64,000 bases of DNA from Escherichia coli (GCF_011045215.1 NZ_CP049201.1); one strand, 5' to 3'; positions 8,107-27,065 are shown, counted from the stretch's first letter. Notes: a model not told the origin generated them from the sequence alone. Made by a program: numbers and translations.

Positions 8107-8194
8107 GGTGAGGTGTCCGAGTGGCTGAAGGAGCACGCCTGGAAAGTGTGTATACGGCAACGTATCGGGGGTTCGAATCCCCCCCTCACCGCCA
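8107..8194 (+). tRNA. serW: tRNA-Ser (anticodon GGA), 88 nt, long variable arm
   Basis: GGTGAGGTGTCCGAGTGGCTGAAGGAGCACGCCTGGAAAGTGTGTATACGGCAACGTATCGGGGGTTCGAATCCCCCCCTCACCGCCA; position directly after infA identifies serW. Confidence 0.92.
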
Positions 8195-8200
8195 GATTAT

Positions 8201-8238
8201 AAGCGCATGTTATTGTTTAACATGCGCTTTTTTATTTT
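8201..8238 (+). terminator. Rho-independent terminator of serW
   Basis: Perfect 12-bp stem AAGCGCATGTTA / TAACATGCGCTT with TTGTT loop, followed by TTTTTTATTTT. Confidence 0.75.
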
Positions 8239-8343
8239 CCCTTTCAGACAGTATGCCATCGGGTATGCCATCTGAAACCGGTTTATATGCCCCGCGATCA
8301 TATCTTATCGGACAATTTCCGATCTTTGAGCATACTGGCAAAG

Positions 8344-9186
8344 CTATACTGCCAGCATATCAGGATAGTGTTTTGCGATAATATCATTCAGTCTGTCAAC
8401 CAGTTCTGGTTTTCTGAACGTGATATGCGCGGAGCCCTTCTTAAAATATCTGATGCTGAACATCTCATCTTCATAGTCCTCTTTACCCTGAACAGACTGG
8501 ATGTGATCATCCAGACGAAGGGTGATGTTTTCCCGGGTGTCGGGGATCGGTTTGCCGCTGAACAGATGCAGCATTCTTTCCAGATCGGCAAGTCTATCTG
8601 CCTGTTGCCCGCTGTTCAGATGAAATCCCCACCGGTCCCATCTCACCAGATTGTTGACGATAATTTTACTGCCAAATTTGCAGGGTGAATTGGTTTTGTA
8701 ATTCCAGCTCAGTCCCCTGAAAACGTTGATCACCCCTCGCTCAAACACTTCATCTTTGTTCTGGTGCAGTTGTTCAAACGTGCTCAGGATATTCGCTTCG
8801 CTGATTTCCGGAAAATTATCGTACTCCAGTGACCGGTACCATGTATCACGGGCTTGTGCATCCATTAATGACAGCATCCCTGAACGTTGCATCAGGTCAC
8901 GCCAGATTTCGCGGTCAAGGTTGCGGGTGATGGCTTTCATTGCGGTTTCCGGTTTCTCCATGAGCCAGCAGCCACAGCGAAAATCCTGTTTCATGGCCCA
9001 GTCCAGTGCGGTTTTACCTCCAATGCTTTCCGTCAGCACCGAGATTTCTGCCAGTTGCCGGATAAGCGTGTCGATTTGCAGCAGTGTACTTTTTCGTACA
9101 GCCAGAATGTGGCGGATACTGGTTGAGCAGATAACGTCCGTATGCCCGTTGACAACTTCCGGACGAGAGGCTGTGATATCAGACAT
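8344..9186 (-). CDS. Conserved island protein of unknown function (280 aa), first gene after serW; possibly DUF4942-like
   Basis: Track ORF; no catalytic motif recognised; family name is from memory only. Confidence 0.5.
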   Translation of the reverse strand: MSDITASRPEVVNGHTDVICSTSIRHILAVRKSTLLQIDTLIRQLAEISVLTESIGGKTALDWAMKQDFRCGCWLMEKPETAMKAITRNLDREIWRDLMQRSGMLSLMDAQARDTWYRSLEYDNFPEISEANILSTFEQLHQNKDEVFERGVINVFRGLSWNYKTNSPCKFGSKIIVNNLVRWDRWGFHLNSGQQADRLADLERMLHLFSGKPIPDTRENITLRLDDHIQSVQGKEDYEDEMFSIRYFKKGSAHITFRKPELVDRLNDIIAKHYPDMLAV

Positions 9187-9282
9187 AATCGATATTCCTT
9201 TTTGCAGATAAATGAAAACGCCAGCCCTGTTCAGGCTGGCGTCAGTGGAATGAAGTCTGGTGAGTGAGATGATGAGTGAAAC

Positions 9283-9480
9283 TCACCGGTTCGGGGGCTG
9301 AAGCTGCAGTTGGCGCAGGGTACGGATATCCTCCCTGGCCTGTTCAATACAGGACAACAGGGCTGTCGAATCCGTTTTATCCTCATCGTTGTCAAAGATA
9401 ATTCCGGATTCACAGTCGATATTGTCCTGCAGCCACGCAATCAGAATATCCAGTGCGGTTTCCGTGGTTAATGATTTCAT
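9283..9480 (-). CDS. Small hypothetical protein (~65 aa from MKSLTTETALDILIAWLQDN)
   Basis: Track ORF 9283..9525(-); upstream part overlaps the preceding gene, so an internal start is assumed. Confidence 0.35.
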   Translation of the reverse strand: MKSLTTETALDILIAWLQDNIDCESGIIFDNDEDKTDSTALLSCIEQAREDIRTLRQLQLQPPNR

Positions 9481-9491
9481 GTTGTTCCTGG

Positions 9492-9980
9492 TTACCAGTT
9501 GAAAGTGGGTAAGCCCGGCAGGCATTCAGCGCTGGCATCCAGATGAATGAGACTGACGCCATAACGTCGGGTAAGTGTGACAACCAGACGACGGAACGTT
9601 TTTGACAGGCCCAGGCGCTTAAGCCGCAGAACCGGGTATGACCACGCACCGGTACGTAACAGATATCCGCTACCTGTGAAATGAATCCATTCTGATTCGC
9701 CAGTGTCATTCGTCTGATGTGATAGTGAGTACAGCCAGGCGTTGTCCTTTGCCGTGATATGCGCGGTACTGCAGCGTATGCCGGTCAGGGCCGCAGATGG
9801 TGGCGTGCGCTCTGCTGATGTCCGGTCAGATTCATCAACAACACGAAGGGAGTAGCCATTGTCGCAGGCCACGTTAATCAGTTCAGCGAGATTAACACCA
9901 TCGACGTCAACGACAATGCGCCCCATGTTCAGCGTCTGCACGTTAATACTGTCAGCTTCCAGCGTCAGGGAAAGTTTCAT
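9492..9980 (-). CDS. Hypothetical protein (162 aa) immediately downstream of the toxin gene (YeeW-position)
   Basis: Track ORF; start overlaps the stop of the upstream toxin gene (translational coupling). Confidence 0.55.
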   Translation of the reverse strand: MKLSLTLEADSINVQTLNMGRIVVDVDGVNLAELINVACDNGYSLRVVDESDRTSAERTPPSAALTGIRCSTAHITAKDNAWLYSLSHQTNDTGESEWIHFTGSGYLLRTGAWSYPVLRLKRLGLSKTFRRLVVTLTRRYGVSLIHLDASAECLPGLPTFNW

Positions 9981-10354
9981 TGTTTCGCCTCCGGATGCTT
10001 ACCCAGGGTAATGTTATTTACCGTTCTGTAATTGTCGCGGGTCATCAGGCCTGTCGCCCGGCGGGCCCGGAGGATATCGATGCTGTTTATTAACTGAGAG
10101 TGGGTACAGGTGCTGAATCCCGGCTGGTCAGTACGCACCAGTGCGTATTTTTCCACGAGAAAGTTCACCGCATCGCACAGTGAAATGCCGGCCTCAATAT
10201 GCTGCTCAATCACACGTTCATCAGCGAACGGTGTGTCATTCAGCGTAAGGCCGTAGTGCTGGTCCAGTAGTCGGGAGAGCAGTGTCTGCCAGATGGTGAC
10301 GGGAGACGGGCTGCGCGATGCCTCCCGTACGTGTGTATCGGGTAATGTTTTCAT
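9977..10354 (-). CDS. cbtA: CbtA/YeeV/YkfI/YpjF-family type IV toxin (cytoskeleton-binding), ~125 aa
   Basis: Track ORF 9977..10495(-); start taken at MKTLPDTHVREASRSPSPVTIWQTLLSRLLDQHYGLTLNDTPFADERVIEQHIEAG..., matching the family N-terminus from memory; which paralogue is uncertain. Confidence 0.8.
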   Translation of the reverse strand: MKTLPDTHVREASRSPSPVTIWQTLLSRLLDQHYGLTLNDTPFADERVIEQHIEAGISLCDAVNFLVEKYALVRTDQPGFSTCTHSQLINSIDILRARRATGLMTRDNYRTVNNITLGKHPEAKQ

Positions 10355-10443
10355 ACTGAAGATTTTCCTGATATGAGAGATTAAATTTTGAGGAGAGTAG
10401 TGCTGTAGCGCACCGGGCCGGAGCAGACGATTATTTCGGTGGT

Positions 10444-10812
10444 TTACTTTTTCGTTTCGGGTGTCGGATAAACAGCCAGATAAACGTAACCACAACTACC
10501 GAGGGTGTCGGCTTTGCAGGTCAGCCCTTTGGCATACAGCGTGACGGTATGCTGATGGCGGGGATTCAGTTCACCGCTGGTGAGCATGAGTTCCAGTTGT
10601 TTCATCAGCAGCGGAAAGGCCTGGTCCAGATGGTACGCATCCGCGTCGCTGAACCGGCCTCTGATACCGGCGCGGTCTGCAAGGTAATGCAACCGGTTAC
10701 CCTCCTGCACCAGACGTGCTCCGAAACAAGGTGTCACGGTACAGGGCAGTCCCCACCAGGGGCGGCCGCGATTGTCGTCGGGATGAGTTGTCTCATGGAG
10801 TGTGTCTGACAC
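10444..10812 (-). CDS. cbeA: CbeA/YeeU/YafW/YfjZ-family antitoxin (122 aa)
   Basis: Track ORF; MSDTLHETTHPDDNRGRPWWGLPCTVTPCFGARLVQEGNRLHYLADRAGIRGRFSDADAYHLDQAFPLLMKQLELMLTSGELNPRHQHTVTLYAKGLTCKAD. Confidence 0.8.
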   Translation of the reverse strand: MSDTLHETTHPDDNRGRPWWGLPCTVTPCFGARLVQEGNRLHYLADRAGIRGRFSDADAYHLDQAFPLLMKQLELMLTSGELNPRHQHTVTLYAKGLTCKADTLGSCGYVYLAVYPTPETKK

Positions 10813-10886
10813 AATAAAATCCTCACAAAAAATCAGTTAAGAATGGTCCGGTGGCAGCGATAATTCTGCTCATCATTTCTCCTGAC

Positions 10887-11108
10887 TCAGTTCAGAGTGA
10901 CGCTCATCAGCCGGACATACGGGCCAAAACTGTCCTTACGGCGTTCTGCAAACACGGCCAGCACACCGGGAATATCCTGCACTTCACGACCGGTATACGC
11001 CTCAGCACTGCCGTGCCAGCGGTATTTGCCGGTACAGAACGGAAAAAGACGGGATGCAGGATGTTGTTGGTGAATACGCATGGCTTCACCACGGGTGATA
11101 ATTTTCAT
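10887..11108 (-). CDS. YeeT/YkfH-like DUF987 protein (73 aa)
   Basis: Track ORF; size and position between the RadC-like gene and the antitoxin match the CP4 island module. Confidence 0.65.
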   Translation of the reverse strand: MKIITRGEAMRIHQQHPASRLFPFCTGKYRWHGSAEAYTGREVQDIPGVLAVFAERRKDSFGPYVRLMSVTLN

Positions 11109-11176
11109 GGTGGGATACCTCTGAAGACAGAAGATAAAAGTGAAAACAGGTGTGATGTGGTTGTGACGGTGACGGG

Positions 11177-11668
11177 TTAAAGCAGACCGTGTTCCGCAAA
11201 GGAGAAAACCTGGTTGCCTCCGACTATCAGATGGTCCGGCACCCGGATGTCCACCAGGGCCAGCGCCTGTACCAGACGTTCGGTGATAAGCCGGTCTGCC
11301 TTACTGGGTGTGACTTCACCGGACGGATGATTGTGTGCCAGCACCACGGCTGCGGCATTGTGATACAGGGCGCGTTTAATCACTTCCCGGGGATGGACTT
11401 CCGTGCGGTTGATAGTGCCGGTGAAGAGGGTTTCACCGGCAATCAGCTGATTCTGGTTATTCAGATACAGCACCCGGAATTCTTCACGCTCCAGTCCCGC
11501 CATGTTCAGAATCAGCCATTCCCGTGCCGCATGCGTGGAGGTGAAGGCCACGCCGGGTTCATGAAGATGGCGGTCCAGGGTTTTCAGGGCCCGCTGAATG
11601 AGACTGCGCTCGCCGGGCGTCATCTCTCCGGGCAGAAAGGAAAGCTGTTGCATTGCCCCTGCCTCCAT
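11177..11668 (-). CDS. RadC-like JAB/MPN-domain protein (YeeS/YfjY/YkfG family)
   Basis: Track ORF; JAMM-like HNHPSGEVTPSKAD motif; true start may be the internal MQQLSFLPGEM. Confidence 0.8.
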   Translation of the reverse strand: MEAGAMQQLSFLPGEMTPGERSLIQRALKTLDRHLHEPGVAFTSTHAAREWLILNMAGLEREEFRVLYLNNQNQLIAGETLFTGTINRTEVHPREVIKRALYHNAAAVVLAHNHPSGEVTPSKADRLITERLVQALALVDIRVPDHLIVGGNQVFSFAEHGLL

Positions 11669-12154
11669 TCAGTCGATGATGCGCATAATGGCGCTGCATT
11701 CCGGATGTTGCAGGGCGTAATCCCGCAACCGATAATAATGGACCGTCATGGCATAACACTCCGTACGACAGGCATGATGACTGTACGTCATCAGACAGGC
11801 GGCAATGCCGGCGGCTTCCGGACTCATTTCAGCGCGGTTACCGTTCATGGCATTGAACAGTACCCATGTTTCGTCATCATCGTCATCCGGTTCGGGTGCC
11901 ATAAATGCCCCGCCGTTGTTCAGGGTGTACAGATTCCAGATACCACCGCAGTAGTCTTCGCACAGACGGTCCATCCAGCCGAAGACACGGGGTTCCAGGG
12001 TCACCCACTGTGGAATGAGGCCAAAGTGCTGCGGCCAGAAGCTGATGCGCTGTTCATCAGGGACGGGAGTGGCAACCAACTGAGACTGGTTATTCCCTGA
12101 TGCAGTAGTTACGGAAACAGAAGGTGTGGTGGAGCTATGCGAAAAGGTTGTCAT
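11669..12154 (-). CDS. Antirestriction protein, ArdB/KlcA family (YfjX/YafX-like), 161 aa
   Basis: Track ORF; conserved WNLYTLNNGGAFMAPE region and acidic DDDDDE stretch; stop abuts the RadC-like start. Confidence 0.75.
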   Translation of the reverse strand: MTTFSHSSTTPSVSVTTASGNNQSQLVATPVPDEQRISFWPQHFGLIPQWVTLEPRVFGWMDRLCEDYCGGIWNLYTLNNGGAFMAPEPDDDDDETWVLFNAMNGNRAEMSPEAAGIAACLMTYSHHACRTECYAMTVHYYRLRDYALQHPECSAIMRIID

Positions 12155-12245
12155 GAGATGATTCCTTATAAAAAGTAAATGAATGGAAGAATGCCTGGGG
12201 ATTGGTACAGACGTGAGTCAGGGCTGCACTTTCAGGGAAACAGCA

Positions 12246-13064
12246 TTAGCGCATGCTCTCCAGCAGCGTTTCTGCCATCACCCACAATGCGCGATTGAGC
12301 TTAATGTCCGTGTCGATGCTGTGAATGGCACGGGTGTGGATACGTTTTCCTTTAGCGCTGCGACCGGAAATTCCGCCTTTCAGCATATTCTCCTGAATGG
12401 TCTGATAAGCACTCCACAGGTCCTTACCGTAATCCTCCCTGCGTCGTGGTGTCAGAATGTCGGCGGTGGTGACGGGCTGATGTTCGTCACCATAACGGTA
12501 AGTCAGTGCCGCCTGTGCCAGCGCCTGGTGTGCCGGTGGCGGCAGAATCAGCGACTGCATGGCATCACGCTTTTCCTCAATCCGGTCAAAAACGCCCACC
12601 ACTTCGTAAGCCCCTTCAATAACTTTCTCCACCACGTCTCCCCGGTGCGGAACACGCACCTCTCCCAGAGACTGACCGCAGACGCACCCGTTCTGACAAA
12701 CGAATCTGAAGTAACCCGGCAGCATCTGGTAGCTGGAGGTACCGTCATGGGAATTGAGCAGGATGATTTCCGGGACATGCTGTCCGTTTATCTCTCCGGC
12801 CCGCCGCAGACGCAGCATGTGTTTGGTATACCCCCGGCGGCCCGGGTCACGTACGCGGGTCTGGCAGGCGAAGAAGGGCTGAAAGCCCTCCCGCTGCAGA
12901 CTTTCCAGCACGGTGATGGTGGGGATATACGTATAGCGTTCACTGCGGGAGGTATGCCGGTCTTCCCCAAAAATACCGGGTACATAGTGCATCAGCTCTT
13001 CATGTGTCAGCGGACGGTCACGGCGTATCTGGTTCGCATAACCAAAACGACTTGCTAATCGCAT
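12246..13064 (-). CDS. DUF932-family protein (YafZ/YfjQ-like), 272 aa
   Basis: Track ORF; size and position near the GTPase end of the CP4-type module. Confidence 0.7.
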   Translation of the reverse strand: MRLASRFGYANQIRRDRPLTHEELMHYVPGIFGEDRHTSRSERYTYIPTITVLESLQREGFQPFFACQTRVRDPGRRGYTKHMLRLRRAGEINGQHVPEIILLNSHDGTSSYQMLPGYFRFVCQNGCVCGQSLGEVRVPHRGDVVEKVIEGAYEVVGVFDRIEEKRDAMQSLILPPPAHQALAQAALTYRYGDEHQPVTTADILTPRRREDYGKDLWSAYQTIQENMLKGGISGRSAKGKRIHTRAIHSIDTDIKLNRALWVMAETLLESMR

Positions 13065-13338
13065 GATCTGCTCCTTATGAATGATTAAGCGGTATAAATG
13101 AAAAAGCCGCAGCTCCCGGAGAAGACGCGGCCTGATGGATGATGTTTATTGTCTGAGGTACCCTTCACGGGCGGGCCACGCATTAAGCTGTTATGACAGC
13201 AACCGCCTGCCCGTATGAGAAAGATCCTTCAGCCAGGACATACTCTGTGTAACCCGGCATATCTGTTTTCTCCTGATAAATAAAAAGCCTCTGCCACGCG
13301 TTGTGACAGAGGCTGAAGCATGAAACTGACTTCAGGGA

Positions 13339-13794
13339 TCAGTTAACGTTTTTTCCGGAAACGGTAATTAGCAGTGGATGGTAGTCCTGGGGATCGAAAA
13401 CCGATAACGGCAGACTGACACGATGGCCGTTACTTTCTTCAGTTGCTTTAATGATTTCGGTTGTGGCGACATTTTCCACGCACTCCGTTTCCAGAAATGC
13501 GTCTGTGGTTCGCGTGGCATCACTGTCACCAAAGGCTTCCGTTTCCATTTTTCTGGTCACCAGCCTCTGACCATATTTGTCTTTGAGTTGCAGAGTGATG
13601 GTGAGGGGGCCAAATCCTTCTCCGTTTCCGCCATTATCCAGCCGGAACTGGTAAGCACAAATATTTCCCGGGAGCCATATCGTATCTGTATTGCGTATAC
13701 TGATGTAACGTTGATCCTGTGCCCGGAGTGGGGCAGACCACGTTAACCCCAGAATGACGCCGGTAATAATGCAGGTTTTGAACAGGTGAATCAT
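13339..13794 (-). CDS. Secreted/periplasmic hypothetical protein (151 aa), YfjT-like
   Basis: Track ORF; N-terminal signal-peptide-like MIHLFKTCIITGVILGLTWSAPLRA. Confidence 0.5.
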   Translation of the reverse strand: MIHLFKTCIITGVILGLTWSAPLRAQDQRYISIRNTDTIWLPGNICAYQFRLDNGGNGEGFGPLTITLQLKDKYGQRLVTRKMETEAFGDSDATRTTDAFLETECVENVATTEIIKATEESNGHRVSLPLSVFDPQDYHPLLITVSGKNVN

Positions 13795-13869
13795 GGTATT
13801 TACCTCTCTGAGTCATGACGATGACACTGACAAATCAGGTGATAAAACGTAAAAGGTGCAGAATACTCG

Positions 13870-16392
13870 TTATGCCGGTAACTCCGGGGGTAATGCTTCT
13901 TCCAGCCGGTTAACCATATTGCCGAGATGGGATGCATCATATTCCATGACGGGGCGTTGCCTGATGATACTGACCACCAGTGGTTTGATTAACATATTGG
14001 TCGCGGCCCGTTGTTGTATACCGGCGGCGAAAATGATCTCCAGAGCATTCTGATCGATAACACGGGCCAGATTCGCGTTCAGATTTTCTGTTTCATGTCC
14101 GGTCAGCAGGAAACTGCCGGCAAGCCATGTCACCTGTTCCTGAATCATTGCCAGAATTTTGACGCGATCTTCTTCAACCAGCGCTCCGGCAATTTTTCCT
14201 GATACAGCGGAGGCAATCATTCCCCCCAGAACACCGCCAACCACACGCCCTGTCAGTGCACCAAATGGTCCCAGTGGACTGAACAGTATCCCGCCCGCCA
14301 CTGACCCGACAGCTCCACCTGCCACACCGGAAGATGCCACGGCAAGATTCCTGATGAACTGCGTACCGGAGATCCGTCCCCGCAACATTTTGATCATGTC
14401 AGGGCCGGTTGTGACAGCTACCAGTGCCAGAGATGTCACCAGCGTACCCTTCATCACTTTGTTCAGGGCACTGATATTTCCTGCACCGGTCCCCTTCTGA
14501 AGAGCCAGTCGGACAGTCGGGCTGGCAGTCGAAAAATCAATGTGCTTCAGCATACCCTGAACAACACTGAGCCGGTGGAGTTGCTGGGTTGTGACGTAGA
14601 CAGCCAGTGTGCGGGTGAAGGTTTTTCCTGCCTGGACAGCAGCTGTCTGCAGAGCAGCATCGCGATCGCCGGTGCTGAGCCAGAAGACCGATGCCGTCAG
14701 GGCAAAACTGATCCCTCCGGCCGCCAGACTGACAACCGAACCCTCGGCAATATCATAAGTGACCGATTCGATGGTCCCGAACCGGGTGATATTACGGGCC
14801 TGAGTATAAGTCAGATGTCCCCGACGAATCAGCCGGGACGCTTCTGCGGGATCGATTACACCGGGTACTTTACCTTCGCGGATCTTATTCCTCATGGTTT
14901 CAACAGCGCCGGCATACTGATCACGGGGGACTTCCAGTTGCATGGGGCCATTATTTCCCATGTAACGATACTGTCCGTTTTGTCCGTCGAATGCCGCACC
15001 GACGCTACGGGCTGCAGTTGAACAATATTTCGTCTGGATTTCTGTTCCGCTGACCAGTCTGTCTGCTCCATTTCTGGCATTATTATCACCGAGGATCCGT
15101 GCGTTTTTCAGACGGATTCTGTCGACAATATGGTTTCCCCGTTCAGCGGCAAACCCATGTCCCTGCCCTCCGGAAGCAAACATTTTCTCATTTGTACTCC
15201 AGGTTTCCGGCAGTTTCATGAGAATCAGACCATTCGCCGTTGCATCGGAAATAAAACTGTTGTAGGGGCGTTCATAAATTTCCTGACACAGTGTTTCTGT
15301 TTCGCGACAAAGAGAGGAGCAGTACCATTCCGGATCCGGCTTATGATTTTCCGGGGCATGATGTACTTCTGTCAGCCCGCAGGAGGCACAGACACGAAGC
15401 TCATCCACGTGATGGAATGATACAAAACGGCGACCTTCTGAAAAGGGATACCAGTCACCGCCGTCCAGGCAACGATCGAGAAAATCGTCATTCGCTTCCG
15501 GTGATAAATTCAGGCGGTTCCGGAAGAGTGTTTTCAGTTCATCAGGTGTGAATGACAGGTTCTCTTTCAACTGTTCGTTAAACCCTGCCATGTTTCTTTC
15601 ATACCAGGCATTGTTCAGTAACCAGTTTCCGTCTGCCAGTTCAAATTCCCTCAGCTCTCCCCGGGAAATCCGTTGAGAAATAAGCGTCAGCCAGATGCGC
15701 TCCGTCAGTGAGTCAGGAAGGCTGTAATCGTTTTGCAAACTGGTCAGCCACGATTTACTGTTGAGCACCGGTTGTTCTTCCAGTGTCTGGCTGATGGCAC
15801 AGGTCAGTTTTTTCAGCGCCTGGATTTGGCTGGCCGCCCATAGCAGCGTCACTAATGCAGCCAGCCAGTACAACAACCCGCCCCACCACATCAGTGACGG
15901 TGAAATATCGTACTGTAACGCGATCAATGGTGCGCATGCAGAACAAGCCATAAGGAAAAAGGCAGTATAAAAACAGCAGTAATATCCGTTAATTTCCTTG
16001 CTGATATCTTCTGGTGTGATCCCGTTCTGCTGAATGTTTTTGATCTGCAGGGGAACAGCCAGCAGACCACCGGCGAGAGCGGTGGTCAGAATAAATTTCA
16101 CGGAGTCAAAGGTGTGAGACTCCAGCGCAATATGTTTACCATCAAGTCCCCACATGAAGCTGATGATCATTCCGGCAATCGTCAGAAATACGCCTGCCAG
16201 CCAGCGAATATGGAACAACCGGGTTATGCGTTCGGTGATATAGCCAGCCAGTAAGGCCGGGCCGAACAGACACAGCAATATGAGCCCTGCCAGCGCAGAA
16301 GCCGTGCTGATTAATGCTCTGAACAAAAGGCGAAGAATGGCAAATCCTGCGATCAGCAGGATCAGCGCGCCGACTATCTGTAACATAGTCAC
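13870..16392 (-). CDS. Large inner-membrane protein of unknown function (840 aa), YeeR-position downstream of flu
   Basis: Track ORF; hydrophobic N-terminal ~250 aa; central cysteine cluster CASCGLTEVHH...CSSLC; Gly-rich hydrophobic C-terminal third. Confidence 0.6.
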   Translation of the reverse strand: MTMLQIVGALILLIAGFAILRLLFRALISTASALAGLILLCLFGPALLAGYITERITRLFHIRWLAGVFLTIAGMIISFMWGLDGKHIALESHTFDSVKFILTTALAGGLLAVPLQIKNIQQNGITPEDISKEINGYYCCFYTAFFLMACSACAPLIALQYDISPSLMWWGGLLYWLAALVTLLWAASQIQALKKLTCAISQTLEEQPVLNSKSWLTSLQNDYSLPDSLTERIWLTLISQRISRGELREFELADGNWLLNNAWYERNMAGFNEQLKENLSFTPDELKTLFRNRLNLSPEANDDFLDRCLDGGDWYPFSEGRRFVSFHHVDELRVCASCGLTEVHHAPENHKPDPEWYCSSLCRETETLCQEIYERPYNSFISDATANGLILMKLPETWSTNEKMFASGGQGHGFAAERGNHIVDRIRLKNARILGDNNARNGADRLVSGTEIQTKYCSTAARSVGAAFDGQNGQYRYMGNNGPMQLEVPRDQYAGAVETMRNKIREGKVPGVIDPAEASRLIRRGHLTYTQARNITRFGTIESVTYDIAEGSVVSLAAGGISFALTASVFWLSTGDRDAALQTAAVQAGKTFTRTLAVYVTTQQLHRLSVVQGMLKHIDFSTASPTVRLALQKGTGAGNISALNKVMKGTLVTSLALVAVTTGPDMIKMLRGRISGTQFIRNLAVASSGVAGGAVGSVAGGILFSPLGPFGALTGRVVGGVLGGMIASAVSGKIAGALVEEDRVKILAMIQEQVTWLAGSFLLTGHETENLNANLARVIDQNALEIIFAAGIQQRAATNMLIKPLVVSIIRQRPVMEYDASHLGNMVNRLEEALPPELPA

Positions 16393-16506
16393 TCCGTGAT
16401 GAATATCATGTTATTGTTAATGCCAGCGAATGTGGCGTTGAATATCCGTTGCGCCGGTCCGGGTCCCGATCATGATGACCGGGACCACAGAGAGGCGATG
16501 GTTCTG

Positions 16507-19356
16507 TCAGAAGGTCACATTCAGCGTGGCCTGACCGTTATAGCCTTCGGCGCTGTTGCCGCTGACACTGTGGGCATAACCGGCCTGAACGCCCAGGGTG
16601 ATATTTTCCCGGACACGGGCTTCCAGTCCGGCCTGCAGGTCCAGTGACGTGCCATTCCGGGACGGTGAAAACGTCATGTTACTGCCGGCGGCGGCTGTAC
16701 CCATGCTCATGTCACCCCGGGAGCTGAAAGTGCGGATAACAGAAGGCTGTACCCACCAGTTCACCGGCAGTTCACTCACACGGTGTTTTGCACTGTCGCG
16801 CAGAGTGTCACGGGATGAGGTGCCTTCGCCAAAAGTCATATCGTTGTGGCTGCCCAGACGGAAGCCGGCACGCACATGTTGTGCACTGCCATGCCCGAAC
16901 TTCACATAACCGGCGTTATCCTGGCCGTCATCCAGGGAGAGCCCCTGCCAGGTGTACTGCAGTTGTGGCTCCAGCATCAGGTTGTCAGTGATACTGAAGG
17001 GCAGACCGGTTTCCAGTGAGCCCAGCCAGCCCCAGCCCCGGGCGCGGAAGTCGTTATTGTCCGATGACGCTTTCATGCTGTGGCGGGTTCCCTGGGCCAC
17101 AATGTCAGCCCACAGGCCGGAGGACGTGTGTACCAGATTCAGGTATCCGCCCAGGCTGCCGGCATCATCCCGGACCGTGCCGGCACGGGAGCCGTCATCA
17201 TCCTTAACATCAACGGAAGAATGGCCAGCAGCACCATACACTCCTGTCGTCAGTGACATACCGGCAACCTCTGTTCTCAGCAGGTCACCCTCCAGACGGA
17301 CGAGGCCATAGCTGCCGCTGCTTTCCGGCGTGGCCCCACGGGCAATACCACCGTTGTTATCGTGCCCGAGATGACCGCCCTGAATGCTGAGACGGACGCT
17401 GTTATTTTCACCGCTTACACCGGTCTGATGGCTGCGGGAACCTGCCAGAATCCGGTCATAGTCCATTGCCTGTGTCAGCATGGAGGCATACAGGGGGACT
17501 TCAGCACGATAAGCATTTTCACTGCGCAGGTACCAGTCTTCATCGCTGTCACGGTTCAGGGTGTAGTTAAAGGCGCCGGCCTGAAGCGGGCGACTCAGGG
17601 CAAACGCACCTTCTTCTGTGGTAGCACCATTCTGTGCATCCACAACCCGGATACCCTGTCCGGAGGTTGCCACCCCGAGGTTACTGTTTCCGACATTTGT
17701 AAACGCAAGCCAGGTTTTGCCGGTTGCCTGACCACCATTAATCACCAGCTGGTCAGAGGCATTACTGCCATCAAGGCTGACACGCATATTGATGGTGCCG
17801 CCCTGGCCGGTGAGGTTCGTGGTGGTTAGTTTATGGAACGTTACCGGGGAGTTACTTTTTGCAACAGCACGGCTCAGCGCGGCATCCGGTGTCGTCTGAT
17901 TATCAAAGTGAATCTCTCCTGCGTTAATAATATCGCCGGTACTGACCACATCACCATTCAGTACCATACTGGCGCCTTTACTGAGCTGTGTTCTGCCACT
18001 CAGACTTCCCCCGGCAGCCAGCGTCAGTGTTCCACGATGTCCGACAGTGGTGTTGCTGGCCAGTCCTCCGGCATTAACCGTAAAGCTGCCGCCATTTTCC
18101 AGCAGCAGGCCGCTGGCCTGACCGGATATGCCATCAATACTGAACTTACCGCTGGCATTGGTCCCCTCAACAGTGGCACCACTGTCTGCAATCAGGGCAC
18201 CACCGGATGTCATGGTGACATCTGTTGCCTTACCACCGGCAGACACTGCCAGGGTACCGCCGTCATCCACCAGTGTTTTCCAGGCTGAATGGCCCTCCAG
18301 TACATCCAGGCGACCGCCGGACTCCAGAACAACGCCGTCAGCCTTACCGTTTTCCACTGTGAAATTCCCCAGGCGGTTTGTGCCGGTGACAGTTGCAGCA
18401 GTACTGGTAACCAGTGCACCGCCCGTGTTCTGGGTGACTGCAGTGGCTTCCCCGCCGGCATGTACCCTCAGTTCACCGTTCTGATTTATGGTGGTGTTAC
18501 CGGCAGCGCCACCGGCCTTAACAACCTGCCAGCCCCCCTCGTTAATTACCGTGTTCAGCGCCAGTCCGTCCTTGTGCACATACTGGTAACCGCCATTCAG
18601 TGTGGTATTCAGGGCCCTTCCGTGTACCGACTGGTCACCACCTGCGTAAATGAGAGTGTCACGGGCTATCCCGGAAGATAAGATAATCTGCCGTCCATTT
18701 TTGTTGATGGTGGTGGATTCTGCTGTTCCCTGGACCTTCTGACCCGTGTACGAGTTGTCAGAATCCGGGCCGCCTTCTGCGCCGGTGTTGATGATGGTTC
18801 CTGTTGCCAGCCCGCCACTTTTAACGCTCTGGTAACCGTCGCGGTTGATAATTGTACCGGTGGCAACCCCGCCCTCATGAACCCACTGCTCGCCTCTGTT
18901 ATTCAGCGTGGTGTTCACCGCCAGCCCGTTCAGGCTCTGTCCCCCGCCGTCACGAATAACCGTATCACTGGCTGTTCCCCCCTCCAGCACGACCTGACGA
19001 CCATTTGTGGTGACAGTGGTGTTTCCGGCTATCCCGCCATTCTGTATCCATTGCCCACCGGTGTTTTCTTCACTGTCCGGCCCCAGTTCCAGCCCGGTAC
19101 TGATGGTCATTCCGTTGGCCGTACCGAGGACAATCTGGTTGTCATGATTTGTCAGTGTTCCGCCGCTCATGGTTTCTCCCGCCTGTACAACCGTGTCAGC
19201 AGCCAGTGCCGGGACTGACGTGACAGCAGCAAGAGACAGCGCAACCGCCACACCGGTGCGTTTTCCCCGTGAGCGGGCCAGTTCGGAGGCCACCACCAGG
19301 GTGCCCGTAATGTGATTCCATACCAGCCTGTAGCTGGTGTTCAGATGTCGTTTCAT
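16507..19356 (-). CDS. flu: Antigen 43 (Ag43) self-associating autotransporter, ~949-aa allele
   Basis: Track ORF 16507..19431(-); start at MKRHLNTSYRLVWNHITGTLVVASELARS (extended signal peptide); repetitive passenger domain; C-terminal beta-barrel ending ...GYNGQATLNVTF. Confidence 0.92.
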   Translation of the reverse strand: MKRHLNTSYRLVWNHITGTLVVASELARSRGKRTGVAVALSLAAVTSVPALAADTVVQAGETMSGGTLTNHDNQIVLGTANGMTISTGLELGPDSEENTGGQWIQNGGIAGNTTVTTNGRQVVLEGGTASDTVIRDGGGQSLNGLAVNTTLNNRGEQWVHEGGVATGTIINRDGYQSVKSGGLATGTIINTGAEGGPDSDNSYTGQKVQGTAESTTINKNGRQIILSSGIARDTLIYAGGDQSVHGRALNTTLNGGYQYVHKDGLALNTVINEGGWQVVKAGGAAGNTTINQNGELRVHAGGEATAVTQNTGGALVTSTAATVTGTNRLGNFTVENGKADGVVLESGGRLDVLEGHSAWKTLVDDGGTLAVSAGGKATDVTMTSGGALIADSGATVEGTNASGKFSIDGISGQASGLLLENGGSFTVNAGGLASNTTVGHRGTLTLAAGGSLSGRTQLSKGASMVLNGDVVSTGDIINAGEIHFDNQTTPDAALSRAVAKSNSPVTFHKLTTTNLTGQGGTINMRVSLDGSNASDQLVINGGQATGKTWLAFTNVGNSNLGVATSGQGIRVVDAQNGATTEEGAFALSRPLQAGAFNYTLNRDSDEDWYLRSENAYRAEVPLYASMLTQAMDYDRILAGSRSHQTGVSGENNSVRLSIQGGHLGHDNNGGIARGATPESSGSYGLVRLEGDLLRTEVAGMSLTTGVYGAAGHSSVDVKDDDGSRAGTVRDDAGSLGGYLNLVHTSSGLWADIVAQGTRHSMKASSDNNDFRARGWGWLGSLETGLPFSITDNLMLEPQLQYTWQGLSLDDGQDNAGYVKFGHGSAQHVRAGFRLGSHNDMTFGEGTSSRDTLRDSAKHRVSELPVNWWVQPSVIRTFSSRGDMSMGTAAAGSNMTFSPSRNGTSLDLQAGLEARVRENITLGVQAGYAHSVSGNSAEGYNGQATLNVTF

Positions 19357-19569
19357 CAGCTTTTCCTTACAGAGGGTGAATAAAAAAGCCGGTACCCACA
19401 AATGTGGATACCGGCAGGTACAAAACAGCATGGTCAGATAAAGTGGTTTTTCCCGGACATAAATGCTTCCCCTCTCTCATCCGCCAGAGAAGTATCAGTC
19501 CGTTGTGTGCAATTCCGTTCTGCATGATGAAGAGATTCAGCTGCCTTTTCGCAGGCCATTAACCACTAC

Positions 19570-19612
19570 AAACGATCGATACTAACGATCGATACCTGTT
19601 TTATCGATCGTT
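19570..19612 (-). promoter_or_regulatory. agn43 phase-variation switch: three clustered GATC (Dam) sites overlapping the expected OxyR operator
   Basis: ACGATCGATACTAACGATCGATACCTGTTTTATCGATCG; three GATC within ~40 bp, ~215-255 bp upstream of the flu start. Confidence 0.65.
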
Positions 19613-19727
19613 TTATTCTATTGATAGCAGGGCAGTCACGCAAGAGAAACAGGAGGGTATGAGGGGTTTGTATCATGTTTTCAGTTGGTTAACGCAATGT
19701 AATCAGGCATTTCCCCTGGCAGAGTGT

Positions 19728-20600
19728 TCAGAAGAAAATCCAGTTCCATACCGCACGGGCAACAGAGACCACCGTGTCACGAACAGCGCGCAGGGCCGTA
19801 CGGACAACAGAGGCAACACAGACGCTCTCCGCTGTGTCAAATATCCGGTCCACCGCACCGGTAAACTGTTCACGGGCCTGAGAGCGGACAGATTCCGTGC
19901 GCAGCTCGTCCTGCAGTCGGGTCATCAGGGGACTGGCGGCATGGTCGGGAAGCGCTGTCATGAGCGCACTGACCAGCGTATCCAGTTCCCAGCCGGTGCG
20001 GGCCGATACGGCCACAACCGGATGTGCGGGCCGGAACAGACGGAATACCGCCTCCGTTTTTTCGCGAATGTTCCGTGCCTGTGCGGGAGAGGGCTGAATG
20101 CCGGCCATATCCCATTCATGGCAGGGCTCCGTTTTGTCGGCCTGCGTCACCACAAACAGCACCTGCTGATGTCCCCGGTGCAGGATGTGTCGCCAGAAAT
20201 ACTCATCCACAGACAGGGCACGGTCATCGGCTTTAATCAGCCACAGTACCAGGTCAAGTTCAGGCAGAATGTCACGGTACAGGGCTTCATACTCTGCATC
20301 CCTGTCCCGGCTCTCGCCCACCCCGGGCAGGTCAGTGATAACCATGCTGTGACCGTGGCCACTCAGACGGAAGCGCTGCACTTCCCGGGTGCCGGCGTGA
20401 ACATCACTGACCGGGGTGACCTCCCCCTGAAACAGTGCATTACAGAGTGAGGATTTACCGGCCCCGCTTTTACCCATAATGCCAATCACGGGTTCGTGAC
20501 TGGTGAGTTTGCGCAGATGTTCCAGGATGTGACGGGAAAGTGAGTAAGGCAGGGAGGAGAGCGGTTTTTCAATTGCCTCAATGGCATCAGACGGATTCAT
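19728..20600 (-). CDS. YeeP/YfjP/YkfA-family GTPase (50S ribosome-binding GTPase fold)
   Basis: Track ORF 19728..20639(-); P-loop GIMGKSGAGKSS, DLPG switch motif; start likely at MNPSDAIEAIEK. Confidence 0.8.
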   Translation of the reverse strand: MNPSDAIEAIEKPLSSLPYSLSRHILEHLRKLTSHEPVIGIMGKSGAGKSSLCNALFQGEVTPVSDVHAGTREVQRFRLSGHGHSMVITDLPGVGESRDRDAEYEALYRDILPELDLVLWLIKADDRALSVDEYFWRHILHRGHQQVLFVVTQADKTEPCHEWDMAGIQPSPAQARNIREKTEAVFRLFRPAHPVVAVSARTGWELDTLVSALMTALPDHAASPLMTRLQDELRTESVRSQAREQFTGAVDRIFDTAESVCVASVVRTALRAVRDTVVSVARAVWNWIFF

Positions 20601-21254
20601 ACATGTATTCCCGGTGAAAAAAGACAAAACCCCGCGCACCGGAAAGGTGGCGGGGGATTCACGGAGATAATATCTGCCTGAAATTATTTAGGATGCAGGT
20701 ATCTTCAGATAATCATACCTCCAGAATTTTGTTCTTAATAGTTGAGTAGTGGTATTTGGTTTCCCTGAGAGAATATAAAGGTGAATCATACTGTATTGAG
20801 TTTGATTCTATTTGTACTGAGACAGGTATCTTCATGATTATAATCAAAAGTCGGGTGGATTGGTCTGGCGCTCATTATTTTTTCGAATAAACTCACTAAT
20901 TATTGTAACCATCCCAGAGGAGATGATTTTATGTATAATTGTGGTGAATCATATTCAGAATACGACATATCATTATCTGACGATGAAAACTATAACGATG
21001 ACTATTATCGTGAACGCCCGTGCCCGGGAGAAGTTTTCGGCTATGATAATACTGAGGATAATGATGAGGCGGCATCTGATTATGCACTAAAAATAAATGA
21101 AAACTCTGATTAATACGAGGTGGCTGATAATAAGACAATCAATGACAAATATTAATGAATAAACATAATCAGGCGCTCAATACTTGATTTAATCTGGGCG
21201 CCTGATTAAAATCTGAGGTAACATATAATAATTTTCATCAAAATAGTATTTATG

Positions 21255-22274
21255 TGTGTGATTCATAGACATCGTTTCAATTTTCTCAGCTCAAGTTCAA
21301 GCTTGTAATTCTGTTCCTGAATATGCTCCTTATTGGGCTGATAGCTTGCGTGAACGGCATCCGAGTATGGCGTTTTCTCAGCAAGTTCAAAGTAGCGCTC
21401 CATCGGCGTTTTACCGTTGTGAGCGCAATGAGGACGTTCCCAGTTATAGTAATGCTGCCATTCTGCCAGTCGCTCCTCCAAGTTATCAGTAGCGATATCT
21501 ACGGTAGCGTAAAACTCAGCTTTGTCTGTCTTTTGGGAGCGTTCAACTTTGCCATTAAGATGGGGTGATGCTGGTTTATTTGGACGAAACTTGATGCCGT
21601 ATTCTTTCAGTCTTTCCTGCACCTTAACGGCAAAAAACTCTCTTCCCCGGTCTGTCTGAAAGCGCTGAATCGGGAACGGCATTTCTTCAATAAAACAATC
21701 AATGAAATCCAGTGTGTTTGTAGTCGTGCGACGGGAATAGAGCCTCAGAACTCTGTAGCGAGTGCAATCATCAACAGATGTGTACTGATATAAGCCGGGG
21801 CCAATTTTACAGGTATCCATCTGAACCCAATCACCGGGAACAGGGCGTTCGTAGCGAATGAAATCAGCTTTACGCCGGAGTTTAACAACAGGTTTAACCT
21901 GATTCTGGCAAAGAACTTTGTGGATTGTTGCCATTGCAAGTGAGATTGAATGAAGTCGTTTTAACTCGCTTTGAATCCGTCTTGCACCCAGATTTCGCTG
22001 GGAACGTAACTCCAGAATCAGAGCGACTTCGCAAGTGCCGGTTTTCGTTGATGGCGAACGCTTAGGGCGACGGCTGTGGCTTTCCAGACCAGCGATGCCC
22101 TGAGCCAGATATCTGCGCCACCATTTACGCAATGTGGGGCGGGAAATACCGCAGCGACGGCATACGAACCCCGCGTCACCAGACGTTTCATAGAGTTTTA
22201 CCCACTGTAGCCGCTGCTGAATTTCCCTGTTCATAGTAAGGCATTATAGTGAAACGATGTCTATGAATCACACA
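21255..22274 (-). mobile_element. ~1.0-kb insertion sequence with 25-bp perfect terminal inverted repeats and one DDE transposase (IS481-family-like)
   Basis: Left end TGTGTGATTCATAGACATCGTTTCA (21255-21279) is the exact reverse complement of the right end (22250-22274); encloses the transposase ORF. Confidence 0.75.
21263..22234 (-). CDS. DDE transposase (323 aa), N-terminal HTH plus integrase-core domain
   Basis: Track ORF; N-terminal HTH region (CRRCGISRPTLRKWWRRY), integrase-core region with W..D-/-D-/-E spacing (WVQMDTC... TDRGREF ... ERSQKT). Confidence 0.8.
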   Translation of the reverse strand: MNREIQQRLQWVKLYETSGDAGFVCRRCGISRPTLRKWWRRYLAQGIAGLESHSRRPKRSPSTKTGTCEVALILELRSQRNLGARRIQSELKRLHSISLAMATIHKVLCQNQVKPVVKLRRKADFIRYERPVPGDWVQMDTCKIGPGLYQYTSVDDCTRYRVLRLYSRRTTTNTLDFIDCFIEEMPFPIQRFQTDRGREFFAVKVQERLKEYGIKFRPNKPASPHLNGKVERSQKTDKAEFYATVDIATDNLEERLAEWQHYYNWERPHCAHNGKTPMERYFELAEKTPYSDAVHASYQPNKEHIQEQNYKLELELRKLKRCL

Positions 22275-22424
22275 AGTAAAGAACCTTGCAGAGGCGTTCG
22301 AGCATTATAACGAATGGCATCCGCATAGTGCGCTGGGTTATCGCTCGCCACGGGAATATCTACGACAGCGGACCTGTAATGGGTTAAGTGATAACAGATG
22401 TCTGGAAATATAGGGGCAAATCCA
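22275..22424 (+). mobile_element. IS2 right-end remnant (last ~40 codons of the orfB transposase plus right terminal repeat)
   Basis: Encodes ...[42 protein letters not shown] and ends ...TGGAAATATAGGGGCAAATCCA, which matches the IS2 terminus as I remember it; truncated where the IS481-like element begins. Confidence 0.7.
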
Positions 22425-22598
22425 GCGTAATACCAACCATATAATCTCTAGGAGGAGTATTTTTACAATAGTAAGAACTATCATACATCCCCCTACAGAT
22501 TCAGAGAAGAAAAAGAATTAATTATCGTCAAAACTTTCGACAAATCACATCATTAACATGATAACAACTAACAAAGGACAAGCTAATGAAAGATGTGA

Positions 22599-23651
22599 TT
22601 ACTGCATCAATACGGTAGCTATCGCACTGCCAGAAAACGATCCAGCATCAATTCTGTTTGTATCTATAACCCTATATTGTGACGTTATATCAAATGTTCT
22701 ACTTCCACTGATAACCCCCGAAAATTCCTTCGCACCATCAACAGTCAATGTGCACTTTCCATTATCTCCACATCGAGTTACATTCCCCCCTTCCCCTGAT
22801 ATTAGATTACTACCTTTAATGGTTATATCTACTCTGGTTGGTGAACTGCAATTAATCACTAATCCGGCCTTAGCAAAGTGTCCATCACGAGCCTGGGCTG
22901 ATGTTATTGCATTATGATTTATTGATATATCTTTATTCCCTGCTATATTACAGGATGCCAGAACATTCACTCTTACAGGGGCATATCTGTTCTCCATATT
23001 AACTACTGCAGACTCAACACCCCCACCATCAGAACAATATTTTTCCCCCTTATACCATTCCTCAGATCCTATTTTTAGCGGAATGTTTAAATCATATATT
23101 CCGGCTAAAGCACTGCCCCTCTCTATCGTTACCCTCAATTTGGTACTCTGAAAGTTGTTATATACCAGAGGATATCTGTATCCCGGGACAATTTCTCCTT
23201 CTGGGAATGGTCTGTCATACCAATCATAGTTATCATAAACACCAACGTAAGTCTGATAACCATTATAAATACCACGTTTATTATACCCCCCGGAAATAAT
23301 CTGAATACTCCCTTTCAGACCATTACCCAATCGTATGTTATTACTATCAACTGGCATCGCAATCCATGTTGCCTGACTCTTTGAGCCTTTACCCGAAAGA
23401 ATCTTAACCGGCGAGCTAACAGGCACATTATGACGCTGGACCCAGCTAACAACTGCAGACGTTCTTGGTGCCAGACCGGGCAATACAATATCAAAATAAC
23501 TTGCTGTGTTTCCTGAGGAAATTGTTACATCCGGAATAGTAACATTGTTACCATCTAACTGCCACAATATTTGCATATCACGACAAGGTTCATATGCAAA
23601 TGAACAACCTGATATAAAAACAAAAAGATAAATTATTTTCTCACACCACAT
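22599..23651 (-). CDS. Secreted adhesin-like protein (~350 aa), possible fimbrial tip adhesin; AT-rich
   Basis: Track ORF 22599..23714(-); signal peptide MWCEKIIYLFVFISGCSFA; cysteine pairs; beta-rich C-terminus ending ...GSAIATVLMQ; no chaperone or usher gene nearby. Confidence 0.45.
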   Translation of the reverse strand: MWCEKIIYLFVFISGCSFAYEPCRDMQILWQLDGNNVTIPDVTISSGNTASYFDIVLPGLAPRTSAVVSWVQRHNVPVSSPVKILSGKGSKSQATWIAMPVDSNNIRLGNGLKGSIQIISGGYNKRGIYNGYQTYVGVYDNYDWYDRPFPEGEIVPGYRYPLVYNNFQSTKLRVTIERGSALAGIYDLNIPLKIGSEEWYKGEKYCSDGGGVESAVVNMENRYAPVRVNVLASCNIAGNKDISINHNAITSAQARDGHFAKAGLVINCSSPTRVDITIKGSNLISGEGGNVTRCGDNGKCTLTVDGAKEFSGVISGSRTFDITSQYRVIDTNRIDAGSFSGSAIATVLMQ

Positions 23652-24797
23652 ACCTTTCACACCTTGTATATCCCCAGACCAGAAAATCCCTGAGCGCATA
23701 AATAACCCTCTCACTACGAACCGAAGACAACTCCATTAACAACGGAAAAACAAACTCAGATACCTTTCCTGGTATTAAAACATCCTTCTCTTTTACTTTT
23801 TTTGCACATCTTCTCCTTAACCATAAAACAGAGAAAGAATAAAATTCGCACACAGGATATATAGATACTTTATCCCAGTAAATAACAAAAAAACGATCTT
23901 TTTATCTACAAAAACGACACAATAAAGACAAACAAACCAAAAACACAAAAAAACACCAAAAATAACTCCAATTGGCAGCAAAATAACAAATAAAAAGATC
24001 GTTTAATTTGCATTAAGCAGCATTTTTAACCGTACAAACAAAAAAGCAAAAATTAGACAAAAATCAAAAACAAGTATATCAAAAAATGGAAAAACAAAAG
24101 ACAGTAATATTATGAGTTGCTTTTTTGTTCACATGTAAACAGGTGAATTTCATTTCAGAGATACTGATTATCCTGAAAATACTTATTCATTAATTACCAA
24201 CACTTTTTCATGTAAACATCACGCTAATTGCATGGAAAAAGAAAGGAAACTTTTTAGTCGGCATGAAGACACTTTTGTAATTACTGTACAGATACTAATT
24301 GTTCCTGCCCTTCCTGACCCGATAGCGTGACAATCCATTTACATGGTTCCATGAAATTGTGAACTGCCTGATAATCTAATGTCGTGTCAACACCACGATC
24401 TTTGACCGTCTTATATATCACTGGTACTAATAGATTAACCCGACCACAGGAAAAATATTTCCGTCAGGTATTTGGATATGCCCGGAACCAAGATCCACAA
24501 AACAGACCACTGACGTTTGTCAATGTAATACTGGCCTTCTATGGTAAATGTTGTGCTCATCAATACACAGATGTGATTTGTCTGAACCTTTACTATGTTA
24601 CTATGGATGGTATTTTACGGGAGAGCTGGAAATACGTTACGCATCCGGAGCTCTTCCCAAAGAATTAACAGCTTGAGCTCGAAAAGGGAAACCTGTTCTG
24701 AATTCCACCTCGGAAAATATAATAACCAGTTTTCTTATGACTATTATGCTTAAACACTGCCCAGATATGTCAGGGAAGAAAGAGTATGATAGACTCA

Positions 24798-25730: not shown

Positions 25731-25833
25731 CCATACTTACATAAATAAAAAACTGTAACAGCGCAAAGAATTATGACTATCATCTGCTCCTTCATACTGA
25801 AAAAAGATCATTTGATTTTCGGTTTTTAATGAT

Positions 25834-26475: not shown

Positions 26476-27065
26476 TCGTCCGGAAAAACAGATTCAATGG
26501 CGTTGACAAATGAACCCGAGCAATAACCATGCGGGCTGACAACGGGGCAGAACCTGAGCCAGCCGGGAGTCATTCCCTGGGTCACAACTTCATAACTTGC
26601 CACAAATACTCGTGTCAATACTTCGCAACCAGACTCAATCACCCGGCTGCGTGAACCAGTTAATCCAGCATCCAACAGAGGAACGGGCACAGCAGAGCGT
26701 TCTGGCAACGTCGCTGACACGGTCACCCCGGTACAGCATCAGCATAGCAGTCAGTCTGCGGGCATAATTTTATCGTGTGTTTTATGAATGGCTTTCTGCA
26801 TCAGGCGTCGTTCGTCACGGGAAATTGGTGCTATGATCGGCATTGCTCAGTACGGTTGGTGATTTGTTTTGATTTGGCGATTGACCAGATCGCACCATCC
26901 GGGCTGAGTTCCCTCAAAGGGATCTACTATTCCGCGCAGCTATTTAGCTACCAGCATAAATCACACTAAAATATTAAAATTATAATTCGCGTTGAAATTA
27001 TATTCAGCCCCTGAAGTTAACAGAGGCTGGTCGATTTGTATGATATGATGATTTCTGGTTAATTA

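Follow-up and report, generated by a model that had tools for sequence, protein, structure and literature searches.

A tRNA-associated island block of the CP4-44 lineage at serW of Escherichia coli, probably made of juxtaposed units

A 64,000-nt stretch of Escherichia coli DNA (GCF_011045215.1, NZ_CP049201.1; the window) was analysed for a gene block that surrounds an agn43 gene and lies beside the serine tRNA gene serW. The first 8.2 kb of the window (trxB-cydDC-aat-infA) are E. coli chromosome, sharing 99.3% identity with many E. coli genomes, and serW, a tRNA-Ser(GGA) gene detected with both ARAGORN and the Rfam tRNA model, is located at 8107-8194 on the plus strand. Foreign DNA begins directly after serW and runs past the window end (64000), and E. 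coli 1303 and strain C5 have the same infA-serW-DUF4942 junction; serW is where the island starts and serves as its chromosomal attachment site. Homology with related islands extends from serW to ~20713, which gives a block of ~8195-20713. The initial annotation had set the limits of the module at 9977-20600, an interval that is too narrow and excludes even the gene at the YeeW position (9492-9980) named in the same annotation. Because all genes of the block are carried by the minus strand, their transcription is directed toward the tRNA gene.

The open reading frames (ORFs) were listed and compared with Pfam (a local copy), NCBIfam and PDB. The ten homologues that had been proposed, namely a GTPase, Ag43, a large membrane protein, DUF932, an ArdB/KlcA antirestriction protein, a RadC-like JAB protein, a YeeT-like protein, a CbeA-type antitoxin, a CbtA-type toxin and the YeeW-position gene, were all found on the minus strand and in this order, and each family assignment passed, with Pfam E-values of 1e-15 to 1e-60 across the named homologues, far beyond chance. 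Overlooked, however, had been irmA, a DUF905 remnant, the IsrC/agn43 leader, DUF957 and DUF4942. Plus-strand ORFs across the block (up to 303 aa) matched no family and were treated as antisense shadows.

Read in the direction of transcription, the block starts with an intact, 290-aa GTPase gene of the YeeP/YkfA/YfjP family (19728-20600, minus strand; MMR_HSR1, 4e-15), whose product is 95.7% identical to the fragment encoded by the K-12 yeeP pseudogene and 49% identical to YkfA and YfjP. The G1 P-loop GKSGAGKS was located at residue 43 and the G3 motif DLPG at residue 90, and the canonical NKxD motif was not found in this protein. PADLOC matches of the GTPase to LeoBC/LeoA were weak candidates only and insufficient for a defence-system call. 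A G+C-rich hairpin with a T-run was also observed at 20630-20644 (minus strand), only ~25 nt before the codon at which the GTPase gene starts (20600); it may have terminated an upstream gene that has since been lost, or may act as an attenuator.

The agn43 regulatory and leader region (19375-19611, minus strand) was identified by an IsrC match (Rfam RF00124, IS102; 74 bits vs. a gathering score of 46), and contains a leader hairpin at 19388-19415 and three GATC sites (~19573-19609) that align with those upstream of K-12 flu. In agn43 homologues, Dam methylation of the three promoter GATC sites corresponds to the ON state and OxyR binding to the OFF state, resulting in heritable phase variation; since the three sites are kept and aligned with those of K-12 flu, a Dam/OxyR phase switch is expected at this copy. 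The gene itself (16507-19356, minus strand) encodes a 949-aa Ag43/Cah self-associating autotransporter, matching the NCBIfam equivalog NF033177 over residues 1-949 with 1973 bits vs. a cut-off of 1200. Pfam detected ESPR, AIDA, autochaperone AC_1 and Autotransporter beta-barrel domains, and the passenger matched PDB entries 7KOH, 7KO9 and 4KH3. The copy is of the Cah type, with an overall identity of 66% to K-12 Flu; its passenger region has diverged (~75% at the DNA level vs. K-12 flu), and the beta-domain is conserved. Ag43 homologues are exported by the type V pathway and cause cell clumping through head-to-tail self-association of the beta-helix passenger.

Downstream of agn43, a full-length YeeR-family membrane protein of 838 aa is encoded at 13870-16386 (minus strand), as recognized from its identity to YeeR and its hydrophobic segments; residues 1-507 share 99.4% identity with K-12 YeeR. 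No family match was obtained for it in the local Pfam copy, and YeeR homologues of 815-850 aa carry PF27347 (YeeR_C). Alignment with homologues revealed four invariant cysteines, C333, C336, C356 and C360, that constitute a Cys4 ribbon, and the AlphaFold2 (AF2) model, with a predicted local distance difference test score (pLDDT) of 78, has five long helices at the N-terminus, winged-helix-like domains in tandem and this ribbon. Beyond the ribbon come an alpha/beta domain, in which E415, N418, D422, D442, R443, K453, E485 and D489 are invariant, and a C-terminal Gly-zipper. No informative PDB match was found with the AF2 model, and PDB sequence searches with YeeR, DUF932, DUF4942 and DUF5983 yielded nothing meaningful. 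High-E Pfam scans of YeeR segments returned only a sub-threshold C19orf12-like Gly-zipper match, and a PADLOC match to PDC-M09B (9e-6) was likewise a weak candidate that does not suffice for a defence-system call. Homologues of ~830 aa with 33-48% identity were found as solo genes in Pseudomonas, Methylomonas and Dyella, and the neighbours of these solo genes include RES-Xre and HicAB toxin-antitoxin pairs and a TIR-domain gene. In K-12, work on YeeR was confined to the truncated 510-aa form. Full-length YeeR, with its five N-terminal transmembrane helices, might be an autonomous membrane-anchored enzyme or effector that lacks a solved structural relative, serves defence or abortive infection instead of assisting Ag43 and spreads as a single-gene cassette across Proteobacteria, a proposal that we consider improbable.

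The third gene of this unit is irmA (interleukin receptor mimic protein A, aec69; 13339-13794, minus strand), identified by Pfam PF18673 (1e-38) and PDB 5EK5 (1.7e-81), the homologue of which is a secreted interleukin-receptor mimic. A strong terminator-like hairpin at 13286-13314 (minus strand), with a 12-bp stem of 7 GC pairs and a T-run, closes the agn43-yeeR-irmA unit, and flu-yeeR-irmA form a single transcript according to evidence cited by Bernabeu et al. 2019 (PMC6480617).

On the distal side of the hairpin, alignment with the E. coli 1303 gene revealed a remnant of a DUF905 gene (aec70/YkfF family), a 25-codon ORF at 13183-13260 (minus strand). The DUF932 gene (aec71/YfjQ/YafZ family; 12246-13064, minus strand; Pfam PF06067, 1.2e-51) encodes a protein with 75% identity to YfjQ and YafZ. 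Its AF2 model has a pLDDT of 93 and matched no PDB entry below E 0.1; the family, collected at E up to 0.001, comprises 5,354 clusters when grouped at 50% identity, and literature searches for a DUF932 function found none. The ArdB/KlcA antirestriction gene (11669-12154, minus strand; Pfam PF03230, 2.4e-37) encodes a protein that matched ArdB (PDB 2WJ9, 2.8e-98) and KlcA (PDB 2KMG, 5.9e-20) and is 67-69% identical to its Yfj/Ykf counterparts; ArdB/KlcA homologues block type I restriction in vivo. The adjacent gene (11177-11653, alternative start 11668, minus strand; Pfam PF04002, 3e-45) encodes a 158-aa RadC-like JAB/JAMM metalloprotease homologue that is 98.6% identical to YeeS and preserves the JAMM motif H-x-H-x7-S-x2-D (HNHPSGEVTPSKAD, residues 107-120). 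The antirestriction stop had been said to abut the JAB gene, and an ATG does follow the stop directly (TGAATG, 11671-11666), but RefSeq homologues use the ATG at 11653, which lies 15 nt downstream and is preceded by a GGAGG. The DUF987 (YeeT) gene lies at 10887-11108 (minus strand; Pfam PF06174, 5e-40), with 98.6% identity to YeeT.

The type IV antitoxin CbeA (YeeU), 122 aa, is encoded at 10444-10812 (minus strand; Pfam PF06154, 1.2e-54; PDB 2H28 YeeU, 9e-76) and precedes the adjacent gene for the 125-aa CbtA-type toxin (9977-10354, minus strand; Pfam PF06755, 1.6e-60); their identities to K-12 CbeA and CbtA are 91.8% and 89.5%, respectively. CbtA homologues block cell division and elongation by binding FtsZ and MreB, and CbeA homologues counteract them by bundling FtsZ and MreB filaments, not by binding the toxin. 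Residue F65, which is required for FtsZ binding in CbtA, YpjF and YkfI (PMC5624674), is conserved. The toxin ATG (10354) is located 89 nt past the cbeA stop, and an overlap with cbeA arises only for a mechanical, TTG-extended toxin ORF (10495). An overlap of the toxin start with the downstream ORF, as the initial annotation had it, is the wrong way round: it is the toxin stop that overlaps the start of the DUF5983 gene (ATGA, CAATGAAAC at 9977-9980). This gene, at the YeeW position (9492-9980, minus strand; Pfam DUF5983_N, 1.3e-30, and DUF5983, 8e-22), encodes a full-length protein of 162 aa, which the 64-aa K-12 YeeW matches at residues 5-64 only. A DUF957-type small protein of 65 aa follows (9283-9480, minus strand), with 90.8% identity to DUF957-annotated genes of E. 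coli 1303 and PEC240 and no match in the local Pfam copy. After it, a terminator-like hairpin with an 11-bp stem and a T-rich tail is found at 9217-9243 (minus strand), and the gene for a 280-aa DUF4942 protein at 8344-9186 (minus strand; Pfam PF13708, 1.6e-69), in which a motif search was negative, completes the block.

BLASTP comparison against all three K-12 paralogue sets gave a clear answer as to the lineage of this copy. Identities to the Yee proteins were 95.7% for the YeeP fragment, 99.4% for YeeR, 98.6% for both YeeS and YeeT, 91.8% for CbeA and 89.5% for CbtA, and those of the Yfj and Ykf paralogues to the window proteins were 49-83%. The copy is thus assigned to the Yee/CP4-44 lineage, of which it is the long, undeleted form, more complete than any K-12 copy. 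Colinear BLASTN alignment indicated that K-12 CP4-44 lacks the segment corresponding to window 11629-14866 (3,236 bp), a deletion that joins a truncated yeeR to yeeS and takes away the YeeR C-terminus, irmA, DUF905, DUF932 and ardB; K-12 yeeR has indeed been described as truncated, and irmA (aec69), aec70 and aec71 as missing there (Bernabeu et al. 2019, PMC6480617). This deletion also explains why counterparts of DUF932 and ArdB are lacking from CP4-44 of K-12; the Yfj and Ykf copies are roughly equally distant from each of these two proteins (75% for DUF932 and 67-69% for ArdB). K-12 CP4-44 (yeeP-isrC-flu-yeeR-yeeS-yeeT-cbeA-cbtA-yeeW) has gene order, lineage, the IsrC/three-GATC region and identities of 89-99% in common with the window copy, but its yeeP is a pseudogene and its yeeW is cut to 64 aa. 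Furthermore, K-12 CP4-44 lies by the cob genes (cobU, with yeeA on the other side), whereas the window copy is found at serW, after cydDC-aat-infA, and is therefore a paralogue inserted elsewhere and not the CP4-44 locus itself. CP4-57 (yfjP-yfjQ...yfjX/lfgA-yfjY/lfgB-ypjJ-yfjZ-ypjF) and CP4-6 (ykfA-yafZ...yafX-ykfG-ykfH-yafW-ykfI) are alike in families and order from GTPase to toxin, the shared order being GTPase, DUF932, antirestriction, RadC-JAB, DUF987, antitoxin and toxin, and the toxin end of CP4-6 adjoins the tRNA gene thrW as the block here adjoins serW. They differ in the lower identity (49-83%), in the absence of Ag43, YeeR and IrmA, and in having no annotated homologue of DUF5983, DUF957 or DUF4942.

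The block has already been described and is common, and the window holds an ordinary copy of it. With an 11.3-kb query, at least 80% of the block was covered in 1,761 of the 5,426 complete E. coli genomes, with best identities of 94-96%, and genomes with any match carried a median of three partial copies. In enteroaggregative E. coli 042, the gene block has been called flu-yeeR-irmA(aec69)-aec70-aec71. The cah-carrying serW islands of E. coli 1303 and the bovine strain C5 share the serW junction and all 14 genes in the same order at 94-97% DNA identity; they differ from the window in that an additional ORF of 645 bp separates DUF987 from the antitoxin gene, and 1303 has an intact DUF905 gene, unlike the window. 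Collinearity of strain C5 with the window covers 924-25772 and 41944-58988, and at the far end of its island this strain carries a second, inverted copy of the block, GTPase-Ag43-DUF932-ArdB-RadC-DUF987-YeeU-CbtA-DUF5983-DUF957 (locus L014, 34386-46575), with hha nearby. As the window ends before the position equivalent to that copy, this island may also hold a second block copy beyond the window end. The window was also searched for a repeat of the tRNA 3′ end, as expected at the far border of the island, but none was found.

The integrity of the genes bears on whether the block is an inert cryptic-prophage fossil, which would owe its conservation to recent descent alone and have lost its function, and for which the partial deletions of the K-12 copies, the deleted DUF905 gene in the window, the insertion sequence (IS) elements flanking the block and the absence of an integrase from the window could be cited. 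However, 13 of the 14 genes have lengths exactly equal to their RefSeq counterparts in E. coli 1303 and PEC240, and the JAMM, P-loop, DLPG and F65 residues are kept, so that the description of the module as complete and intact stands for these 13 genes and fails for DUF905, a deletion remnant. The ratio of nonsynonymous to synonymous substitution rates (dN/dS; Nei-Gojobori, vs. two diverged copies) was 0.04-0.32 in 12 of the 13 full-length genes; irmA gave 0.6-0.9, on only 8-11 substitutions. Since these low ratios were obtained despite a synonymous divergence of up to 0.2-0.4, they argue for purifying selection. Homologous toxin-antitoxin pairs, ArdB, Ag43 and IrmA are, moreover, experimentally active, and we regard the fossil explanation as very unlikely.

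Collectively, the locus is very probably a conserved variable-end block of tRNA-associated E. coli islands of the CP4-44, CP4-57 and CP4-6 family, in which units are juxtaposed rather than assembled into one machine; these islands have historically been annotated as the cryptic prophages CP4-44, CP4-57 and CP4-6. Based on the terminator-like hairpins after irmA and after DUF957, four units would be distinguished: the GTPase gene, the phase-variable agn43-yeeR-irmA operon, the stretch from the DUF905 remnant to DUF957, and DUF4942. The Ag43-YeeR-IrmA operon would represent adhesion and host-interaction cargo. The term conflict module, used in the initial annotation, suits the part with ArdB, RadC-JAB and CbeA/CbtA, whose homologues have conflict-type functions, but not Ag43-YeeR-IrmA, which is set apart by the strong terminator-like hairpin. 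Were the whole stretch from the GTPase to DUF5983 one co-operating defence or anti-defence system, the gene order kept in hundreds of genomes, the location of all genes on one strand and the weak PADLOC matches of YeeR (PDC-M09B, 9e-6) and the GTPase (LeoBC/LeoA) would find an explanation, as would the joint up-regulation of the Ag43 gene (fluC) and the neighbouring DUF932 gene in E. coli Nissle (PMC11056357), from which some read-through from the Ag43 unit into DUF932 is possible. Yet in CP4-57 and CP4-6 the GTPase and the distal cluster occur with none of Ag43, YeeR and IrmA, YeeR homologues stand alone in Pseudomonas, Methylomonas and Dyella, DUF932 and DUF905 occur in plasmid leading regions without the remaining genes, terminator-like hairpins divide the block, and the documented roles of Ag43 and IrmA are in adhesion and host interaction. 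A single co-operating system is thus very unlikely, and the block is better read as juxtaposed units.

For the distal half, a link to the leading regions of conjugative plasmids was found. The DUF932 protein is 63% identical to the product of a leading-region gene of R100, where the order is psiB-psiA-hok-DUF932-SLT-traM, and in pMB9108_1 the order is ssb-DUF905-psiB-hok-DUF932; DUF932 is the gene beside SLT and the origin of transfer (oriT) in IncF plasmids, and in these two leading regions the DUF932 and DUF905 homologues lie between ssb/psiB/hok and oriT-traM. At least 5,000 plasmids, of which 87% are conjugative, carry homologues of DUF4942, RadC and KlcA; leading-region placement was shown directly only for DUF932 and DUF905, in the two IncF plasmids, and KlcA, RadC and DUF4942 were shown as plasmid-borne only. 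The complete distal block was present on only 28 plasmids and was almost absent from 50,697 phage records, and because of the latter, "prophage" was rejected as a label for what the block contains. Genes for antirestriction, toxin-antitoxin and methyltransferase functions accumulate in leading regions (Samuel et al. 2024, PMC11541004). The distal half would accordingly be an establishment and maintenance cassette of plasmid or integrative and conjugative element ancestry, related to conjugative leading regions, which would shield the DNA of an entering island from restriction and afterwards put a cost on losing it.

A stronger form of this proposal holds that the DUF905-DUF4942 cluster is itself a leading-region cassette, and that the island would be transferred by conjugation, this end first, with its genes expressed early from single-stranded DNA promoters. 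The five families common to conjugative plasmids, the position of DUF932 beside SLT and oriT in IncF plasmids, the single coding strand and an antirestriction and toxin-antitoxin content that fits the leading-region islands of PMC11541004 are consistent with it. Against it, neither ssb, psiB nor an Frpo-type promoter was identified in the window, nor were a relaxase or an oriT, although oriT was not searched for; the cluster points to the tRNA end, where no transfer origin is known; and neither of the two IncF leading regions inspected contained RadC, DUF987 or CbeA/CbtA. The window cluster further differs from these plasmid regions in its toxin-antitoxin pair, CbeA/CbtA rather than hok/sok, and in its chromosomal location beside a tRNA gene. 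Transfer with this end first is thus possible but rather unlikely, and the more general ancestry of the distal half as an establishment and maintenance cassette is retained as part of the reading of the block as juxtaposed island units.

Several observations weigh against this reading. No relaxase or type IV secretion system domain was present among the window ORFs scanned, and no oriT was seen, although no oriT search was made, so that mobility is unproven; no integrase was seen within the 64-kb window either, the far island end lying beyond 64000. DUF905 has suffered a 119-bp, frame-breaking deletion, the junction of which is shared by 52 of the 5,426 complete genomes, with an intact gene in 2,141. 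In the toxin, the N-terminal 20 residues differ from those of K-12 CbtA, with Arg at 14 and Ser at 15, and the Ser15 is unfavourable in that R15 matters for MreB binding in K-12 CbtA, although the active paralogues YpjF and YkfI do not conserve this residue either and have Cys there (PMC5624674). Most coding sequences of the block (the GTPase, YeeR, DUF932, DUF987, DUF5983, DUF957, DUF4942 and the DUF905 remnant) are without known function, and all mechanisms proposed here are transferred from homologues and would apply to this copy by analogy.

Other features were found in the window outside the block. A run of insertion sequences extends over 21263-34912, with an IS481-family element (21263-22234), an IS3-type element (27462-29029), IS21/ISEc12 (31009-33311) and a Tn5-like transposase (33497-34912); a 371-aa ORF of no family (22599-23714), a PapB-like regulator (23641-23853), an EAL-domain gene (24798-25730) and an AraC-type regulator (25834-26475) were also located there. 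Two helicase/nuclease genes of defence-like architecture are present on the minus strand, an 893-aa protein with AAA_11/AAA_12 and DUF2726 (36349-39030) and a 608-aa protein with NERD and UvrD (41300-43126), the NERD gene being a frameshifted pseudogene in strain C5. A lone type VI secretion ORF with ImpA_N and VasL (405 aa; 39657-40874, minus strand) has no other type VI secretion genes nearby and is probably what is left of a decayed cluster. A class II contact-dependent inhibition locus occupies 45568-57096 (minus strand) and consists of cdiB (ShlB/POTRA; 55357-57096), an HlyC-type acyltransferase gene (54820-55347) and a gene (45568-54804) whose 3078-aa CdiA product has a PT-VENN pre-toxin motif close to the C-terminus; small ORFs downstream of cdiA could be immunity or orphan modules. 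Toward the window end, a ProQ/FinO-domain ORF (158 aa, 59933-60409) and an ORF at 62361-62927 that weakly resembles YagK/YfjJ and the G2P replication proteins of inoviruses are both of a kind usual in the backbone of CP4-type islands.

As to its meaning, this copy is useful as a reference for the undeleted CP4-44 block and reveals what K-12 has lost, and its antirestriction, JAB and toxin-antitoxin half shares families with the leading regions of conjugative plasmids. The importance of the window beyond correct annotation is small, and the uncharacterised genes of the block are common to thousands of E. coli genomes and not particular to this one.

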